64,000 nt of DNA. Source: Escherichia coli. Lineage in GTDB: Bacteria > Pseudomonadota > Gammaproteobacteria > Enterobacterales > Enterobacteriaceae. The position numbers were made by a program, and so were the translations under genes. The stretch is taken from NCBI RefSeq assembly GCF_003334385.1, contig NZ_QOWN01000025.1; one strand, given 5' to 3'. Each line of letters opens with the position of its first letter. Position 1 is the stretch's first letter. The notes under the pieces are model-generated. The model ran no database searches. It saw only the letters and a list, made by a program, of their open reading frames with translations, and was not told where the DNA came from. Positions 1 through 62,669 of the stretch are shown in pieces.

Positions 1-63
1 TTATCGTGAGAGTAATTCATCGGCACGTTAAATCATATCAGGCGTAATACCACAACCCTTAAG

Positions 64-666
64 TTAGCGCTTATGGGGATCCTCCCCGCCATTGGCAAAC
101 CAGCTTGCGGCAAGGCGCTGTTTTTCTTTCATCTGACGTTGCAGGCTATCACCGGTGATCAGCCGTAACGCCTGATTCGGGCAAGCGCGAACGCAGGCCG
201 GACCTTCTGGCAAGAAATCACACAGGTCGCATTTCACCGCGACGGTCTGGACACCAGGTTCCCAGCGCAGCAAAGCATGTTGTGTTGGCGCGTTTTCTTC
301 GCCGTCTTTGAGTGAGCCTTCAGCCTGAAAAACATATTGCGCATGGGCATTCACCGGACGGCTTCCTGAAGCGCTGATTGCGCCAAATGGGCAGACCACG
401 GCGCAAAGCTTGCAGCCAATACAGAGGCTTTCGTTGAGTTGGATCGCATCATCCCTCTGAGAGATGGCATTGACCGGGCAGACCTGCAGGCAAGGGGCTT
501 CCTCACAGTGATGACACACGACAGGGGCAGTGATTGTTGACGTCTTCGCCAGGGCCAGGCGCGGGTGTTGCTGTAAACCTTGCGTTTTATGCACGTCCGA
601 ACAGGCAGCGAGACAGGTATTACATCCTGTACACCACAGTGGTTCGGCCACCACAAAGCGGTTCAT
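64..666 (-). CDS. hyfA: hydrogenase-4 component A, 4Fe-4S ferredoxin-type subunit
   Basis: ORF 64..705; ATG at 666 preceded by AAGGAG gives MNRFVVAEP...; several CxxCxxCxxxCP iron-sulfur motifs; lies downstream of bcp as in the E. coli hyf locus. Confidence 0.85.
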   Translation of the reverse strand: MNRFVVAEPLWCTGCNTCLAACSDVHKTQGLQQHPRLALAKTSTITAPVVCHHCEEAPCLQVCPVNAISQRDDAIQLNESLCIGCKLCAVVCPFGAISASGSRPVNAHAQYVFQAEGSLKDGEENAPTQHALLRWEPGVQTVAVKCDLCDFLPEGPACVRACPNQALRLITGDSLQRQMKEKQRLAASWFANGGEDPHKR

Positions 667-707
667 GTCGGCTCCTTGAAAATGATATGAAACATTGCAT
701 TTCATAT

Positions 708-723
708 TGCATAAAGGATGCCA
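708..723 (-). promoter_or_regulatory. candidate sigma54 (-24/-12) promoter for hyfA
   Basis: minus-strand reading TGGCATCCTTTATGCA matches the TGGCAC-N5-TTGCA spacing (GG and GC 10 nt apart), about 40 nt upstream of the hyfA ATG; hyf is known to be sigma54-dependent. Confidence 0.4.
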
Positions 724-918
724 TTCTGATTAACTCAATATATTCAATAAGTTATGTATTAACTGGATTCTGAACGGTACAAAAATGATGGTCATTAACG
801 TTCAGCAAAAAATGGATTCGACACCCGTGTCGCAGGGGAAAGCGAGAATGTGATCTTGATCACGAGAAGTGAGGTATGCTGGCCGCAAGCGCAGCCAGCA
901 CGGAATGGAGCAAAGTAA

Positions 919-1389
919 TCAGGCGTGTTCTTTCAGCCAGTTCAGCACAACGTCGTGGTGATTGCTGGTTTTGAAATCGTCAAAGACATGTTCGATTTTG
1001 CCATCAGCGTCAATCAGGAAGCTGATGCGATGAATGCCATCGTAGGTTTTGCCCATGAAGGACTTTTCACCCCAGACGCCGAATTGTTCGCACACCTGGT
1101 GGTCCTCATCAGACAGGAGCGTAAAGTTAAGCAGCTCTTTTTCCGCAAAACGGGAGAGTTTTTCGGGTTTATCGGTGCTGATACCCAGCACATCAACGCC
1201 CGCTTTTTTCAACTCATCCATGTTATCGCGTAAGCCGCAGGCCTGTACGGTACAGCCGGGGGTCATGGCTTTCGGGTAGAAATAAACCAGAACACGCTGT
1301 CCCTGGAAGTCGGTCAAATTAACTTGTTCTCCGTCTTGATCCGGCAAGCTAAATTTCGGTGCGATATCACCGGCTTTCAGTGGATTCAT
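919..1389 (-). CDS. bcp: thiol peroxidase / peroxiredoxin Bcp
   Basis: 156-aa ORF, AhpC/TSA-like with TPGCT active-site Cys motif; matches E. coli Bcp length. Confidence 0.9.
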   Translation of the reverse strand: MNPLKAGDIAPKFSLPDQDGEQVNLTDFQGQRVLVYFYPKAMTPGCTVQACGLRDNMDELKKAGVDVLGISTDKPEKLSRFAEKELLNFTLLSDEDHQVCEQFGVWGEKSFMGKTYDGIHRISFLIDADGKIEHVFDDFKTSNHHDVVLNWLKEHA

Positions 1390-1961
1390 TACTTAACTCC
1401 ATCCTGTTCATCATGTTGGGAATAATTGACGACGTTAATACTGCCTTGTGCATTGAGTTCTGTACATAGGGCTTTGAACGCTTGCTCAATATTTGCTGCG
1501 TCCGCAGATGCGGGGCTGTGGGCGGTTATCTGAATATGCAACTGCGCAGCCCGTTCATTTTCAGCAGGTTGCGTGCGCGACACCAGCTCCGCAATGTTCA
1601 TATGATGCGCGTCGAAAAGTGCTGTGAAGCGTTCAATTAAATGCGGGGAGTCTGCCACATCGACCTGAACCCAGACAGATGCTGGCATTGGCGGACGCGG
1701 ACGCGCCGTCGTGCGCTTCATCACGATTAAAAGATCCAGTTCGGCACCTTTCAACGGTAACGTTGATTCAATCAGAGTAATGGCATTCCATGAACCGGAA
1801 AGCAGCATAATAAACGTGAACTCTTCTCCCAGCATCGCCAGGCGACTGTCTTCAATATTACAGCCGCAACTACTGACATGACGGGTGATGGTGTTCACAA
1901 TTCCAGGGCGATCGGCACCCAACGCAGTGATCACCAGATAATGTTGCGATGACAGTGTCAA
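1389..1961 (-). CDS. gcvR: glycine cleavage system transcriptional repressor
   Basis: ORF 1389..2027; TTG start at 1961 with AAGGA RBS gives (M)TLSSQHYLVITALGADRPGIV (190 aa, ACT domains); stop overlaps the bcp ATG. Confidence 0.85.
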   Translation of the reverse strand: MTLSSQHYLVITALGADRPGIVNTITRHVSSCGCNIEDSRLAMLGEEFTFIMLLSGSWNAITLIESTLPLKGAELDLLIVMKRTTARPRPPMPASVWVQVDVADSPHLIERFTALFDAHHMNIAELVSRTQPAENERAAQLHIQITAHSPASADAANIEQAFKALCTELNAQGSINVVNYSQHDEQDGVK

Positions 1962-6007: not shown

Positions 6008-8023
6008 ATGGCTGAACTGACTGCGCTTCACACATTAACAGCGCAAATGAAACGTGAAGGGATCCGCCGCTTGCTGGTGTTGAGCGGGGAAGAGGGTTGG
6101 TGTTTTGAGCATACTCTTAAGTTGCGTGATGCCTTACCTGGCGACTGGCTGTGGATTTCGCCGCGGCCAGATGCTGAAAACCACTGTTCTCCCTCGGCAC
6201 TACAAACTTTACTTGGGCGCGAGTTCCGGCATGCGGTATTCGACGCCCGCCACGGCTTTGATGCCGCTGCCTTTGCCGCACTTAGCGGAACGTTGAAAGC
6301 GGGAAGCTGGCTGGTTTTGTTACTCCCTGTATGGGAAGAGTGGGAAAACCAACCTGATGCCGACTCGCTGCGCTGGAGTGATTGCCCTGACCCTATTGCG
6401 ACGCCGCATTTTGTCCAGCATCTCAAACGCGTACTTACGGCGGATAACGAGGCTATCCTCTGGCGGCAAAACCAGCCATTCTCGTTGGCGCATTTTACTC
6501 CCCGTACTGACTGGTACCCCGCGACTGGCGCACCACAACCAGAACAACAGCAACTCTTAAAGCAGCTAATGACCATGCCGCCGGGCGTGGCAGCGGTAAC
6601 GGCTGCGCGTGGGCGCGGTAAGTCGGCGTTGGCAGGGCAACTCATTTCTCGTATTGCGGGCAGAGCGATTGTCACCGCGCCCGCAAAAGCGTCAACGGAT
6701 GTACTGGCACAATTTGCGGGCGAGAAGTTTCGCTTTATTGCGCCGGATGCCTTGTTAGCCAGCGATGAGCAAGCCGACTGGCTGGTGGTCGATGAAGCCG
6801 CAGCCATACCTGCGCCATTGTTGCATCAACTGGTATCGCGTTTTCCTCGAACGTTGTTAACCACTACGGTGCAGGGCTACGAAGGCACCGGACGTGGTTT
6901 TTTGCTGAAATTTTGCGCTCGCTTTCCGCATTTACACCGTTTTGAACTGCAACAGCCGATCCGCTGGGCGCAGGGATGCCCGCTGGAAAAAATGGTCAGC
7001 GAGGCACTGGTTTTTGACGATGAAAACTTCACCCATACACCACAAGGCAATATTGTCATTTCCGCATTTGAACAGACGTTATGGCAAAGCGATCCAGAAA
7101 CGCCGTTAAAGGTTTATCAGCTCTTGTCTGGTGCGCACTATCGGACTTCGCCGCTGGATTTACGCCGGATGATGGATGCACCAGGGCAACATTTTTTACA
7201 GGCGGCTGGCGAAAACGAGATTGCCGGGGCGCTGTGGCTGGTGGATGAGGGTGGATTATCTCAACAACTCAGTCAGGCGGTATGGGCAGGTTTTCGTCGC
7301 CCGCGGGGTAATCTGGTGGCCCAGTCGCTGGCGGCGCACGGCAACAATCCACTGGCGGCGACATTGCGTGGACGGCGGGTCAGCCGGATAGCAGTTCATC
7401 CGGCTCGTCAGCGGGAAGGCACAGGGCGGCAACTTATTGCTGGTGCTTTGCAATATACGCAAGACCTCGACTATCTTTCGGTGAGTTTTGGTTACACCGG
7501 GGAGTTATGGCGTTTCTGGCAACGCTGCGGTTTTGTGCTGGTGCGGATGGGTAATCATCGGGAAGCCAGCAGCGGTTGCTATACGGCGATGGCGCTGTTA
7601 CCGATGAGTGATGCGGGTAAACAGCTGGCTGAACGTGAGCATTACCGTTTACGTCGCGATGCGCAAGCTCTCGCGCAGTGGAATGGCGAAACGCTTCCTG
7701 TTGATCCACTAAACGATGCCGTCCTTTCTGACGACGACTGGCTTGAACTGGCCGGTTTTGCTTTCGCTCATCGTCCGCTATTAACGTCGTTAGGTTGCTT
7801 ATTGCGTCTGTTACAAACCAGTGAACTGGCATTACCGGCGCTGCGTGGGCGTTTACAGAAAAACGCCAGTGATGCGCAGTTATGTACCACACTTAAACTT
7901 TCAGGCCGCAAGATGTTACTGGTCCGTCAGCGGGAAGAGGCCGCGCAGGCGCTGTTCGCACTTAATGATGTTCGCACTGAGCGTCTGCGCGATCGCATAA
8001 CGCAATGGCAATTATTTCACTGA
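6008..8023 (+). CDS. tmcA: tRNA(Met) cytidine acetyltransferase
   Basis: 671 aa; Walker A-like TAARGRGKS; C-terminal GNAT-like region; matches E. coli TmcA length and position. Confidence 0.9.
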   Translation: MAELTALHTLTAQMKREGIRRLLVLSGEEGWCFEHTLKLRDALPGDWLWISPRPDAENHCSPSALQTLLGREFRHAVFDARHGFDAAAFAALSGTLKAGSWLVLLLPVWEEWENQPDADSLRWSDCPDPIATPHFVQHLKRVLTADNEAILWRQNQPFSLAHFTPRTDWYPATGAPQPEQQQLLKQLMTMPPGVAAVTAARGRGKSALAGQLISRIAGRAIVTAPAKASTDVLAQFAGEKFRFIAPDALLASDEQADWLVVDEAAAIPAPLLHQLVSRFPRTLLTTTVQGYEGTGRGFLLKFCARFPHLHRFELQQPIRWAQGCPLEKMVSEALVFDDENFTHTPQGNIVISAFEQTLWQSDPETPLKVYQLLSGAHYRTSPLDLRRMMDAPGQHFLQAAGENEIAGALWLVDEGGLSQQLSQAVWAGFRRPRGNLVAQSLAAHGNNPLAATLRGRRVSRIAVHPARQREGTGRQLIAGALQYTQDLDYLSVSFGYTGELWRFWQRCGFVLVRMGNHREASSGCYTAMALLPMSDAGKQLAEREHYRLRRDAQALAQWNGETLPVDPLNDAVLSDDDWLELAGFAFAHRPLLTSLGCLLRLLQTSELALPALRGRLQKNASDAQLCTTLKLSGRKMLLVRQREEAAQALFALNDVRTERLRDRITQWQLFH

Positions 8024-8096
8024 CTCCTTCAATTTTATCTCATGGTCATTGTGAGTCAGCGGCGTAAAATTAATGACATCAGTTAAGGAGTTCGCC

Positions 8097-8795
8097 ATGA
8101 AACATGACCATTTTGTTGTTCAAAGCCCGGATAAACCTGCGCAACAGTTGTTACTGCTTTTCCACGGTGTCGGGGATAACCCGGTGGCAATGGGGGAAAT
8201 AGGCAACTGGTTTGCACCGCTGTTTCCTGATGCGCTGGTGGTGAGTGTCGGTGGCGCGGAGCCGAGCGGTAATCCGGCGGGGCGTCAGTGGTTTTCGGTG
8301 CAGGGTATTACGGAAGATAATCGCCAGGCGCGTGTGGATGCGATCATGCCGACGTTTATTGAAACGGTGCGCTACTGGCAGAAACAGAGCGGAGTAGGGG
8401 CTAACGCCACGGCGCTCATCGGTTTCTCTCAAGGCGCGATTATGGTGCTGGAGAGCATTAAAGCCGAACCGGGCCTTGCTTCACGCGTCATTGCTTTTAA
8501 CGGACGCTATGCGAGCCTGCCGGAAACTGCGTCTACAGCCACGACAATTCACCTGATTCATGGCGGTGAAGATCCGGTTATCGATCTGGCGCATGCGGTT
8601 GCGGCGCAGGAAGCGTTAATCAGTGCCGGTGGTGACGTGACGCTGGATATCGTGGAGGATTTAGGCCATGCGATCGACAATCGCAGTATGCAATTTGCCC
8701 TGGATCACTTGCGTTATACCATTCCGAAACATTATTTCGACGAAGCGCTAAGTGGCGGTAAGCCTGGCGATGATGATGTGATTGAAATGATGTAA
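8097..8795 (+). CDS. ypfH: esterase YpfH (alpha/beta hydrolase)
   Basis: ORF 8073..8795; ATG 8097 with AAGGAG RBS gives MKHDHFVVQSP (232 aa); GFSQG nucleophile-elbow motif. Confidence 0.85.
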   Translation: MKHDHFVVQSPDKPAQQLLLLFHGVGDNPVAMGEIGNWFAPLFPDALVVSVGGAEPSGNPAGRQWFSVQGITEDNRQARVDAIMPTFIETVRYWQKQSGVGANATALIGFSQGAIMVLESIKAEPGLASRVIAFNGRYASLPETASTATTIHLIHGGEDPVIDLAHAVAAQEALISAGGDVTLDIVEDLGHAIDNRSMQFALDHLRYTIPKHYFDEALSGGKPGDDDVIEMM

Positions 8796-16341: not shown

Positions 16342-18321
16342 ATGAATCGTTTTATTATGGCCAACAGTCAGCAATGTCTGGGTTGTCATGCTTGTGAAAT
16401 CGCCTGTGTCATGGCTCACAATGATGAGCAACATGTCCTGAGCCAACACCATTTTCATCCCCGAATTACGGTTATCAAACATCAACAGCAACGTAGTGCA
16501 GTGACCTGTCACCATTGTGAAGATGCGCCCTGCGCCCGTAGCTGCCCTAATGGCGCAATCAGCCACGTTGATGACAGCATTCAGGTCAATCAGCAAAAGT
16601 GTATTGGCTGTAAATCCTGCGTGGTGGCCTGTCCTTTTGGTACGATGCAAATCGTCCTGACACCCGTCGCGGCAGGAAAAGTAAAAGCCACGGCGCATAA
16701 ATGCGACCTTTGTGCGGGGCGCGAAAACGGTCCTGCCTGTGTTGAGAATTGCCCGGCGGACGCGCTGCAACTGGTCACTGACGTCGCACTCTCCGGCATG
16801 GCGAAATCCCGCCGCTTGCGCACCGCGCGTCAGGAACATCAACCGTGGCATGCCAGTACCGCGGCGCAAGAAATGCCGGTAATGAGTAAAGTCGAACAAA
16901 TGCAGGCAACGCCCGCGCGTGGCGAGCCGGATAAACTGGCGATTGAAGCGCGCAAAACCGGTTTTGATGAAATTTATCTGCCATTTCGCGCCGACCAGGC
17001 ACAACGGGAAGCCTCGCGCTGCCTTAAGTGCGGCGAGCACAGCGTTTGTGAATGGACCTGCCCGCTGCATAACCATATACCGCAGTGGATTGAACTGGTG
17101 AAAGCCGGAAACATCGACGCCGCCGTCGAGCTTTCTCACCAGACCAACACCCTGCCGGAAATTACCGGACGCGTTTGTCCGCAAGACCGTTTGTGTGAAG
17201 GTGCCTGTACTATTCGCGATGAGCACGGCGCGGTAACTATCGGCAACATTGAACGCTACATTTCAGATCAGGCGTTGGCGAAAGGTTGGCGTCCTGACTT
17301 AAGCCATGTCACCAAAGTGGACAAGCGGGTGGCGATTATCGGTGCAGGTCCGGCAGGGCTGGCCTGTGCGGATGTTCTGACCCGCAATGGCGTGGGGGTG
17401 ACGGTGTACGATCGCCATCCAGAAATCGGTGGCTTGCTCACTTTCGGCATTCCTTCTTTCAAACTGGATAAATCCCTGCTGGCACGCCGTCGGGAAATCT
17501 TCAGCGCGATGGGGATTCACTTCGAACTCAATTGTGAAGTGGGTAAAGATGTCTCTTTGGATTCGCTTTTGGAACAATACGACGCGGTCTTCGTTGGCGT
17601 AGGCACTTACCGTTCCATGAAAGCGGGTTTACCCAATGAAGATGCGCCGGGCGTTTATGACGCGCTGCCGTTCCTCATTGCCAACACTAAACAGGTGATG
17701 GGGCTCGAAGAGCTACCGGAAGAGCCGTTTATCAATACCGCCGGACTTAACGTCGTGGTACTGGGCGGCGGCGACACCGCGATGGACTGTGTGCGTACCG
17801 CACTGCGCCACGGCGCGAGTAACGTCACCTGCGCTTATCGTCGTGATGAAGCTAACATGCCAGGCTCGAAGAAAGAAGTGAAGAACGCCCGCGAAGAGGG
17901 GGCCAACTTCGAATTTAACGTCCAGCCGGTGGCGCTTGAGCTGAATGAACAAGGTCACGTCTGCGGGATTCGTTTCCTGCGCACGCGTCTTGGAGAGCCG
18001 GATGCCCAGGGGCGTCGGCGTCCAGTGCCGGTGGAAGGCAGTGAATTTGTCATGCCAGCCGACGCGGTGATTATGGCGTTTGGCTTCAATCCGCACGGGA
18101 TGCCGTGGCTGGAGTCGCACGGTGTAACGGTAGACAAATGGGGCCGCATCATCGCGGATGTGGAAAGCCAGTACCGTTACCAGACCACCAATCCGAAAAT
18201 CTTCGCTGGTGGTGACGCCGTGCGTGGTGCGGATCTGGTGGTTACCGCAATGGCAGAAGGACGTCATGCGGCACAGGGGATTATTGACTGGCTGGGGGTA
18301 AAATCAGTCAAATCTCACTGA
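16342..18321 (+). CDS. aegA: putative oxidoreductase, Fe-S plus FAD/NAD(P)-binding subunit
   Basis: 659 aa; N-terminal 4Fe-4S ferredoxin cysteine clusters, C-terminal GltD-like domain with GAGPAG dinucleotide motif. Confidence 0.9.
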   Translation: MNRFIMANSQQCLGCHACEIACVMAHNDEQHVLSQHHFHPRITVIKHQQQRSAVTCHHCEDAPCARSCPNGAISHVDDSIQVNQQKCIGCKSCVVACPFGTMQIVLTPVAAGKVKATAHKCDLCAGRENGPACVENCPADALQLVTDVALSGMAKSRRLRTARQEHQPWHASTAAQEMPVMSKVEQMQATPARGEPDKLAIEARKTGFDEIYLPFRADQAQREASRCLKCGEHSVCEWTCPLHNHIPQWIELVKAGNIDAAVELSHQTNTLPEITGRVCPQDRLCEGACTIRDEHGAVTIGNIERYISDQALAKGWRPDLSHVTKVDKRVAIIGAGPAGLACADVLTRNGVGVTVYDRHPEIGGLLTFGIPSFKLDKSLLARRREIFSAMGIHFELNCEVGKDVSLDSLLEQYDAVFVGVGTYRSMKAGLPNEDAPGVYDALPFLIANTKQVMGLEELPEEPFINTAGLNVVVLGGGDTAMDCVRTALRHGASNVTCAYRRDEANMPGSKKEVKNAREEGANFEFNVQPVALELNEQGHVCGIRFLRTRLGEPDAQGRRRPVPVEGSEFVMPADAVIMAFGFNPHGMPWLESHGVTVDKWGRIIADVESQYRYQTTNPKIFAGGDAVRGADLVVTAMAEGRHAAQGIIDWLGVKSVKSH

Positions 18322-51290: not shown

Positions 51291-51549
51291 TGAACTAAGT
51301 TCACCAGGCTATTTTATTTGTCATTTTGGCCCCGGGCAGTGCTCGAAATCCTCACGTACTATGTGTACGCTCCGGTTTCTCCGCGCTGTTCGTGTCCAAA
51401 CTGACTGCAACAATTACGCCTGTTGAACCAAGTTCTTATTCCCTTTTCAACTTCCAAATCACCAAACGGTATATAAAACCGTTACTCCTTTCACGTCCGT
51501 TATAAATATGATGGCTATTAGAAAGTCATTAAATTTATAAGGGTGCGCA

Positions 51550-52566: not shown

Positions 52567-53399
52567 TGTTTGCTGTCTCCTCCAGACGCGTGCTGCCGGG
52601 CTTTACCTTAAGCCTCGGCACCAGTCTGCTGTTTGTGTGCCTGATTTTGCTGCTGCCGCTCTCCGCGCTGGTGATGCAACTGGCCCAGATGAGCTGGGCG
52701 CAGTACTGGGAGGTGATCACCAACCCGCAGGTGGTCGCGGCCTACAAAGTAACGCTGCTGTCGGCGTTTGTGGCATCGATTTTTAACGGCGTTTTCGGTC
52801 TGCTGATGGCGTGGATCCTAACCCGCTATCGCTTCCCAGGCCGCACGCTGCTTGATGCGCTGATGGATTTACCCTTTGCGCTGCCAACGGCTGTCGCCGG
52901 TTTAACGCTGGCCTCGCTCTTTTCCGTAAACGGTTTTTACGGTGAATGGCTGGCGAAGTTTGATATCAAAGTCACCTATACATGGCTGGGGATTGCGGTG
53001 GCTATGGCCTTTACCAGCATTCCGTTTGTGGTGCGTACCGTGCAGCCGGTGCTGGAAGAGTTAGGCCCGGAATATGAAGAAGCGGCGGAAACGCTTGGTG
53101 CAACGCGCTGGCAGAGTTTCTGCAAAGTGGTGCTGCCGGAGCTTTCTCCGGCGCTGGTGGCGGGCGTGGCGCTGTCGTTTACCCGTAGTCTTGGTGAATT
53201 TGGCGCGGTGATTTTTATCGCCGGAAATATCGCGTGGAAGACGGAAGTGACGTCGCTGATGATTTTTGTGCGCTTACAGGAGTTTGATTACCCGGCAGCG
53301 AGCGCGATTGCTTCGGTGATCCTCGCGGCATCTCTGCTGCTGCTGTTCTCAATTAACACTCTGCAAAGTCGCTTTGGTCGGCGTGTGGTAGGTCATTAA
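52566..53399 (+). CDS. cysU: sulfate/thiosulfate ABC transporter permease
   Basis: 277 aa; start overlaps the cysP stop. Confidence 0.9.
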   Translation: MFAVSSRRVLPGFTLSLGTSLLFVCLILLLPLSALVMQLAQMSWAQYWEVITNPQVVAAYKVTLLSAFVASIFNGVFGLLMAWILTRYRFPGRTLLDALMDLPFALPTAVAGLTLASLFSVNGFYGEWLAKFDIKVTYTWLGIAVAMAFTSIPFVVRTVQPVLEELGPEYEEAAETLGATRWQSFCKVVLPELSPALVAGVALSFTRSLGEFGAVIFIAGNIAWKTEVTSLMIFVRLQEFDYPAASAIASVILAASLLLLFSINTLQSRFGRRVVGH

Positions 53400-61678: not shown

Positions 61679-61697
61679 CATTTTTAACAAGCTGGCA

Positions 61698-62669
61698 TTA
61701 CTGTTGCAATTCTTTCTCAGTGAAGAGATCGGCAAACAATGCGGTGCTTAAATAACGCTCACCCGATGATGGTAGAATAACCACAATATTCTTGTTGGTA
61801 AAGCTTTCATCTTCTTGTAGTTTCAACGCCGCGGCAACAGCTGCTCCAGAAGAGATACCTGCAAGAATACCTTCTTCTTCCATCAGACGACGCGCGGTAG
61901 AAATCGCTTCTTCATTGGTGATGCCAATGACTTTATCGACCAGCTTGAGATCGAGGTTAGCCGGGATAAAACCAGCGCCAATACCCTGAATTTTATGCGG
62001 GCCAGGTTTAATCTCTTCACCTGCCAGCGCCTGGGCGATAACTGGAGAATCGGTTGGCTCAACGGCGACAGAGATAAGATCGGTCTTGCCTTTGGTGCCT
62101 TTAATGTAGCGGCTGACGCCAGTCAGCGTACCGCCAGTCCCAACGCCAGCAATAAATACATCAACCTGACCGTCGGTATCTTCCCATATCTCCAGACCGG
62201 TGGTCTTTTCGTGAATTTCAGGGTTTGCCGGATTGCTGAATTGTTGCAGCAGCAGGTATTTCTCTGGATTGCTGGCGACAATTTCTTCTGCTTTTTGGAT
62301 TGCGCCTTTCATGCCTTTAGCACCTTCCGTCAGCACCAGGTTTGCACCTAACGCTTTCAGCAGCTTGCGGCGTTCAATACTCATGGTTTCTGGCATGGTC
62401 AGGGTGAGTTTGTAACCGCGAGCGGCAGCTACATAGGCCAGTGCAATCCCGGTATTACCGCTGGTCGGTTCAACCAGTTCAACGCCTGGTTTCAGCACGC
62501 CGCGCTTTTCGGCATCCCAAATCATGTTGGCACCGATACGGCACTTAACGCTGAAGCTGGGGTTACGAGATTCCACCTTCGCCAGAATGCGTCCGTTACC
62601 GATGCGATTCAGGCGAACCAGCGGCGTGTGACCGATAGTCAGCGAGTTATCTTCAAAAATCTTACTCAT
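61698..62669 (-). CDS. cysK: cysteine synthase A (O-acetylserine sulfhydrylase)
   Basis: 323 aa PLP enzyme ([26 protein letters not shown]). Confidence 0.95.

Follow-up and report, generated by a model that had tools for sequence, protein, structure and literature searches.

The spacer that separates bcp from hyfA in the stretch of E. coli DNA analysed here (64 kb; referred to below as the window) carries, on the strand from which hyfA is read, a short sequence with the appearance of a sigma-54 promoter. The question raised by this locus is whether this sequence represents a genuine promoter for hyfA or a chance resemblance and, if it is genuine, which genes it serves in this strain. Our analyses indicate that the element is almost certainly hyfAp, the promoter from which the hydrogenase-4 (hyf) operon of E. 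coli is transcribed in a sigma-54-dependent manner. This promoter is already known, having been experimentally characterised and catalogued for more than 20 years (EcoCyc; genome-wide sigma-54 maps), and the K-12 hyfAp (EcoCyc; OS23) shares with the element described here the same 17-mer, the same distance to the ATG and the same flanking genes, bcp and hyfA. The present work mainly confirms that a real -24/-12 promoter is recognisable from raw sequence; as a by-product, it has yielded a map of the conserved hyf control region, comprising a CRP-type site, a palindromic candidate enhancer, an invariant block and an IHF-like site.

Based upon the list of open reading frames and public annotation, the genes identified include hyfA (666..64, with its ATG at 666..664 on the minus strand), bcp (1389..919), gcvR, dapA, and bamC, and the annotation of this locus in E. 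coli K-12 MG1655 is gcvR-bcp-hyfA. The window is 100% identical to MG1655 over positions 75..1400, which includes the spacer and hyfA down to position 75. The features that make up the promoter proper are as follows.

708..724, minus strand: sigma-54 -24/-12 promoter, 17-mer ATGGCATCCTTTATGCA, equivalent to ChIP-seq site OS23 and kept in Citrobacter and Kosakonia
696..697, minus strand: predicted transcription start; the rule of PMC4591121 gives 697, at 19 nt past the centre of the motif (716) and at a distance of 31 nt to the ATG
672..677, minus strand: Shine-Dalgarno sequence AAGGAG, 5 nt ahead of the hyfA ATG; GGAGCC is invariant in a 7-species alignment

A preliminary description of this DNA had proposed a sigma54-type GG/GC element on the minus strand of 708..723, about 40 nt 5' of the hyfA ATG at 666, together with a strong AAGGAG ribosome-binding site for that ATG. 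Both the exact sequence and the spacing of this element were confirmed, its 3' end (708) was found to be 41 nt from the A of the ATG, and the ribosome-binding site was located at 677..672. The 16-mer TGGCATCCTTTATGCA occurs only once in the 64-kb window, on the minus strand at 723..708, where its GG (722-721) and GC (710-709) are 10 nt apart, as in the canonical -24/-12 spacing. The minus strand around the hyfA promoter reads ...TTAATCAGAATGGCATCCTTTATGCAATATGAAATGCAATGTTTCATATCATTTTCAAGGAGCCGACATGAAC..., and the element within it, read as TGGCAT-N5-ATGCA, shows two departures from the consensus TGGCAC-N5-TTGCW, viz. an A for T just before TGC and a T for C after GGCA. It is intergenic, within the 252-nt bcp-hyfA spacer (918..667), and is on the hyfA-sense strand.

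With a start at 697, the GC of the element falls at -13/-12 and the GG at -25/-24; a start at 696 shifts these by one nucleotide, and both placements fit. Position 696 is presumably the hyfA start that was reportedly mapped by primer extension to 30 bp upstream of the gene. The open reading frame list also offered an in-frame ATG at 705 (ORF 64..705) as the start of hyfA. This candidate was rejected as an artefact of the listing: it is located past the -12 box but ahead of the transcription start, and the mRNA made from this promoter does not include it. A perfect inverted repeat, ATATGAAA-N7-TTTCATAT, was also observed at 685..707 (minus strand), on both sides of the transcription start; the K-12-type, O157 and PEC165 alleles of E. 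coli all have this repeat, and it is not conserved in Citrobacter or Kosakonia.

The significance of the motif was examined in a number of different ways. The loose pattern TGGC-N8-TGCW is present 13 times in the window, compared to an expectation of 7.6 +/- 2.9. A position-specific matrix (PSSM) was trained on 41 published intergenic E. coli sigma-54 sites, from which hyf was left out, and in this analysis the hyf element scored 13.7 bits, ranking 4th in the window and below 35 of the 41 training sites (training range 8.8-21.8). In random sequences of the same dinucleotide make-up, matches that are equal or better are expected about 2.4 times per 64 kb on both strands, and with the Barrios 186-promoter matrix the hyf element ranked 8th in the window. 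By score alone, the -24/-12 motif is indistinguishable from chance in 64 kb, and the case for a promoter is therefore not rested upon the motif score. What raises the hyf element above chance is its position (between genes, in the orientation of hyfA and at 41 nt to the ATG), together with published occupancy and conservation; for the 80 nt or so that precede any one start codon, the chance of a match on the correct strand is estimated from the random rate to be approximately 0.0015.

The highest-scoring sigma-54 PSSM match in the window, CTGGCATTACTGTTGCA, was found at 61692..61708 (plus strand), antisense in the 3' end of cysK (61698..62669, minus strand). This sequence has been published as IA18, one of the intragenic sites of the sigma-54 ChIP-seq map (Bonocora et al. 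2015, PMC4591121), and the fact that the best match in the window is a published site indicates that the scan is meaningful. Three additional sigma-54-like motifs were observed at 53108..53124 (plus strand, 14.6), 51406..51422 (minus strand, 14.0) and 18042..18058 (minus strand, 13.5). They are absent from the main-text tables of the ChIP-seq paper (PMC4591121), and their number is about that expected by chance.

Occupancy of the hyf element by sigma-54 had been shown by others. In the ChIP-seq study, the site for hyfA, OS23, is listed on the plus strand of K-12 with the motif ATGGCATCCTTTATGCA, a fold-above-threshold value of 16 and a PSSM score of 10.524; its start is predicted at a distance of 31 nt to hyfA, and the site carries the flag 'C', which denotes "experimentally confirmed in EcoCyc" (PMC4591121, Table 1). 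By genomic SELEX (gSELEX) with the RpoN holoenzyme, Shimada et al. 2021 (PMC8743547) obtained a peak of 92% for the spacer bcp>hyfA, and when NtrC was added this peak was at 100%, the highest in the genome. For the hyf promoter of Proteus mirabilis, dependence upon rpoN and fhlA has been demonstrated by reporter assay (PMC7658346). Induction by formate or low pH via FhlA or HyfR is cited in the same work. The 17-mer of OS23 corresponds exactly to positions 724..708 of the window. In E. coli, hyfA expression is reportedly dependent upon sigma-54, FhlA, and HyfR, and is said to be lost in an rpoN mutant.

To assess conservation outside of Escherichia, HyfA was scanned for using one genome per species, which yielded 45 loci, none of them from Escherichia. 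Of the 43 hyfA/hycB-like loci from these other genera that could be scored, 30 have a -24/-12 motif with a score of 10 bits or more, located 38-83 nt ahead of the start codon. Six of the loci (4 from Citrobacter and 2 from Kosakonia) are syntenic, with bcp upstream and a hyfB of 675 aa downstream, and only in these could the spacer be aligned with that of E. coli. The promoter has the form ATGGCATCCTTTGTGCA in the 4 Citrobacter and TTGGCACAnCTTATGCT in the 2 Kosakonia loci, at the same distance to hyfA, and the alignment of the spacers reveals sharp conserved footprints amid otherwise diverged sequence. Similar to E. coli, the hyf (FHL-2) loci of Citrobacter, Kosakonia, Proteus/Providencia/Morganella, Dickeya, and Pectobacterium contain a -24/-12 element 38-83 nt from the hyfA-like gene, with TGTCGA motifs upstream and an IHF-like AACnAnTGAT block in between, although in the loci beyond Citrobacter and Kosakonia the spacers are not alignable and the neighbouring genes differ from those in E. 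coli. The earlier proposal that a sigma54-type promoter serves hyfA is thus supported by the OS23 17-mer, the gSELEX peak, the identity to K-12, and the conservation in Citrobacter and Kosakonia.

In contrast to these points, the remark in the preliminary description that the window ends before any upstream activator sites is incorrect. As hyfA is on the minus strand, upstream of it means higher coordinates, and the entire 252-nt bcp-hyfA spacer (918..667) is inside the window and can be assessed; the earlier remark resulted from a mix-up of the strands. Conserved candidate activator sites were found at 864..742. These sites, and a hairpin further upstream, are listed below, with their centres given relative to a start at 697; the proteins named for them are assigned by sequence likeness and are to be read as putative.

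742..754, minus strand: TAACTTATTGAAT, an IHF-like site that matches the complement of WATCAANNNNTTR except for 1 mismatch; centre about -51
779..794, minus strand: block of 16 nt, TGACCATCAyTTTTGT, invariant across Escherichia, Citrobacter, and Kosakonia; centre about -90
818..832, minus strand: palindrome CGACACGGGTGTCGA, candidate FhlA/HyfR enhancer (UAS); centre about -128
849..864, minus strand: CRP-type site cGTGATCAAGATCACA, matching TGTGA-N6-TCACA at 9/10 positions; centre about -160
877..900, minus strand: hairpin TGCTGGCTGC-N4-GCGGCCAGCA, directly 3' of the bcp stop

The palindrome at 818..832 is unique in the window, where 0.03 occurrences are expected, and in the alignment with Citrobacter and Kosakonia it is kept as CGACAC-N3-TGCCGA (consensus CGACAC-N3-TGYCGA). 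Its 8-mer CGACACGG and the 7-mers GTGTCGA and TGTCGAA are common to the upstream regions of K-12 hyc-hyp and hydN, and in 33 hyfA/hycB-like loci TGTCG/CGACA was found upstream of the sigma-54 motifs at 12.8 per kb, compared to a background of 2.5 per kb, a five-fold enrichment. From its uniqueness, the shared 7- and 8-mers, and the enrichment of TGTCG/CGACA, we infer that this palindrome acts as the FhlA/HyfR enhancer. A published FhlA matrix based upon 13 sites (PMC7658346) gave the palindrome a score of only 5.0, which counts against this assignment. Within the spacer, the matrix gave its highest score, 9.9, to the CRP-like palindrome, and in the rest of the window 20 sites scored above 10.7; we regard the matrix as uninformative for locating the enhancer.

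In the alignment of Escherichia, Citrobacter, and Kosakonia, no other nearly invariant run in the spacer is as long as the block at 779..794. This block showed no fit to the FNR, CRP, or IHF consensus or to the published FhlA consensus, and it is possibly a second activator site. Both this block (-90) and the palindrome (-128) are predicted sites that fall in the region about 80-200 nt upstream that is suited to an AAA+ activator. The IHF-like site aligns as TAACnnnTTGAww and is perfect (TAACTAATTGATT) in Citrobacter NCU1. The IHF pattern is common by chance (7 found in the window, 5.2 expected), so the support for 742..754 comes from its conserved position only. For the CRP-type pattern, 2 matches were found in the window as against 0.34 expected; in the site at 849..864 the half-sites are conserved and the 6-nt spacer varies (e.g., Citrobacter TGTGACTAATATCACA), as expected for CRP. 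The other match in the window, GTGA-N6-TCACA (GTGATGGTGTTCACA) at 1885..1899 (plus strand), is within the gcvR coding region.

The hairpin at 877..900 is a probable terminator of bcp, and in the Citrobacter loci a GC-rich hairpin followed by a T-run is present at the same place 3' of bcp. A scan had also flagged the palindrome at 832..819 as terminator-like. This call was rejected, as bcp has a better hairpin at 900..877, and in Citrobacter and Kosakonia the right arm of the palindrome is TGCCG with no compensating change, which indicates that it is the sequence rather than the pairing that is conserved. A promoter scan of positions 600..1000 found no promoter of the sigma-70 type, and a housekeeping promoter was therefore set aside as the main driver of hyfA.

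In the mechanism that we propose, RNA polymerase containing sigma-54 would bind to the GG (-24) and GC (-12) at 722..709, where it would be held as a closed complex. Opening of this complex would require FhlA or the paralogous HyfR, both of them AAA+ enhancer-binding proteins, acting through upstream sites, DNA looping, and ATP hydrolysis. The activator would be bound at the palindrome (832..818, about -128) and perhaps also at the block at 794..779 (about -90), with looping probably aided by the IHF-like site at 754..742. Transcription starting at approximately 696/697 would then yield a leader of 30-31 nt containing the AAGGAG ribosome-binding site of hyfA. Expression of hyf is said to require cAMP-CRP, which the CRP-type site at 864..849 fits and would explain.

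The FhlA-dependent promoters of the formate regulon (hycAp, hypAp, fdhFp, and hydNp) resemble hyfAp in the location of the -24/-12 element, which is 20-41 nt away from the start of the gene, and in their upstream regions, which are rich in TGTCG/CGACA repeats. However, the tandem TGTCG-N-GACA repeats of these other promoters are absent from the hyf upstream region, which has instead a single everted palindrome, CGACAC-N2-GTGTCG, and a separate invariant block. Unlike the others, hyfAp also has a low score with the FhlA matrix, contains a CRP-type site in addition, and has a paralogous activator of its own, HyfR.

Variation within the species was examined in 5,426 complete E. coli genomes, of which 4,298 contain the full bcp-hyfA spacer. 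In about 1,100 of the 5,426 genomes, the match to the spacer (window 667..918) is confined to its first 49 nt; in ST131, yfgO and bepA come directly after bcp, and the whole hyf operon is absent together with its promoter. The -24 box is TGACAT rather than TGGCAT (GG to GA) in 139 of the 5,426 genomes, which belong essentially to the O157:H7 lineage, and the allele of this lineage, as seen in strain 6535NalR in comparison with window positions 724..708, has three nearby changes besides this one. The G that is changed is a near-invariant position of the -24 element, and the predicted effect of GG to GA in O157:H7 is therefore that sigma-54 should bind to hyfAp more weakly or not at all.

The strain analysed here has a further peculiarity, at the other end of hyfA.

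1..74, minus strand: left end of IS421 (IS186/IS4-family), inserted in the 3' end of hyfA
64..666, minus strand: hyfA, hydrogenase-4 ferredoxin-type subunit, with its last 8 codons replaced by HKR-stop through the insertion sequence

The identity to K-12 stops at window position 75, after which the inverted repeat of IS421 begins, and a target duplication of 12 bp, GGGAGGATCCCC, is present at 86..75. The element, approximately 1.34 kb long, interrupts hyfA at a point 26 nt short of where the gene stops in K-12, with its transposase gene co-oriented with hyf; in locus L001 the insertion is placed at 7315-8676, and in strain AR_0149 hyfB resumes past IS421, about 1.34 kb on. The hyfA-IS421 junction was detected in 51 of the 5,426 complete E. 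coli genomes. Hence, in this strain the downstream operon context differs from that of the K-12 hyfAp by virtue of the IS421 at the 3' end of hyfA. The insertion (51 genomes), the GG to GA change (139) and the absence of hyf (about 1,100) could help to explain why hydrogenase-4 appears 'silent' or dispensable in many E. coli.

Two other explanations of the element itself have to be weighed against an active hyfAp. It could be a chance GG-N10-GC match, in which case the transcription of hyfA would be due to a sigma-70 promoter or to read-through from bcp. The non-significance of the motif score by itself is in keeping with this possibility, as is the location of the co-oriented bcp 252 nt upstream of hyfA, but sigma-54 occupancy by both ChIP-seq and gSELEX has been published for exactly the hyf sequence, the motif is kept across genera while the flanking spacer diverges, the spacer contains no sigma-70-type match and a hairpin stands behind the bcp stop; we regard a chance origin as extremely improbable. 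Alternatively, the element could be a poised sigma-54 site, at which a closed complex forms that seldom, if ever, proceeds to transcription in wild-type E. coli, hyf being a 'silent operon'. Native hyf expression in E. coli has been reported to be poor (PMC7384014), and the binding of sigma-54 to sites in a transcriptionally inactive state has been stressed by Bonocora et al. (PMC4591121). The tolerance of GG to GA in the -24 box by the O157:H7 lineage and the roughly 1,100 genomes without hyf also point in this direction. However, overexpressed HyfR is reported to raise hyfA-lacZ expression about 1,000-fold. The promoter is also classed in EcoCyc as experimentally confirmed, the hydrogenase-4 systems under its orthologues in Proteus and Pectobacterium are active, and the joint conservation of the promoter with its upstream sites argues for its use. 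A poised site of this kind is viewed as rather unlikely.

The remaining readings concern what hyfAp serves in strains containing IS421. As the insertion is between hyfA and hyfB, the genes that follow hyfA may have lost the service of the promoter, and in IS421 strains it may be uncoupled from hyfB-focB. It is a real possibility, to which we assign somewhat less than an even chance, that the promoter is genuine and is uncoupled from hydrogenase-4 by a polar IS421, so that it drives only a hyfA altered at its C-terminus, possibly with read-through into the co-oriented transposase gene. The end of the K-12 identity at position 75 with the IS421 inverted repeat next to it, the 12-bp target duplication, the resumption of hyfB after the insertion in AR_0149, and the shared orientation of the transposase and hyf are all in accordance with such uncoupling, whereas read-through or an outward-facing promoter of the insertion sequence could still express hyfB-focB; in either case, uncoupling modifies rather than replaces the identification of the element as hyfAp. 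A more specific, and in our view improbable, proposal is that the sigma-54 promoter, responsive to formate and acid, reads through the truncated hyfA into the co-oriented IS421 transposase gene, which would place both the expression of the transposase and transposition under the control of FhlA/HyfR and sigma-54 while hydrogenase-4 is silenced by polarity. If true, this would apply to the present strain and to 50 other sequenced E. coli.
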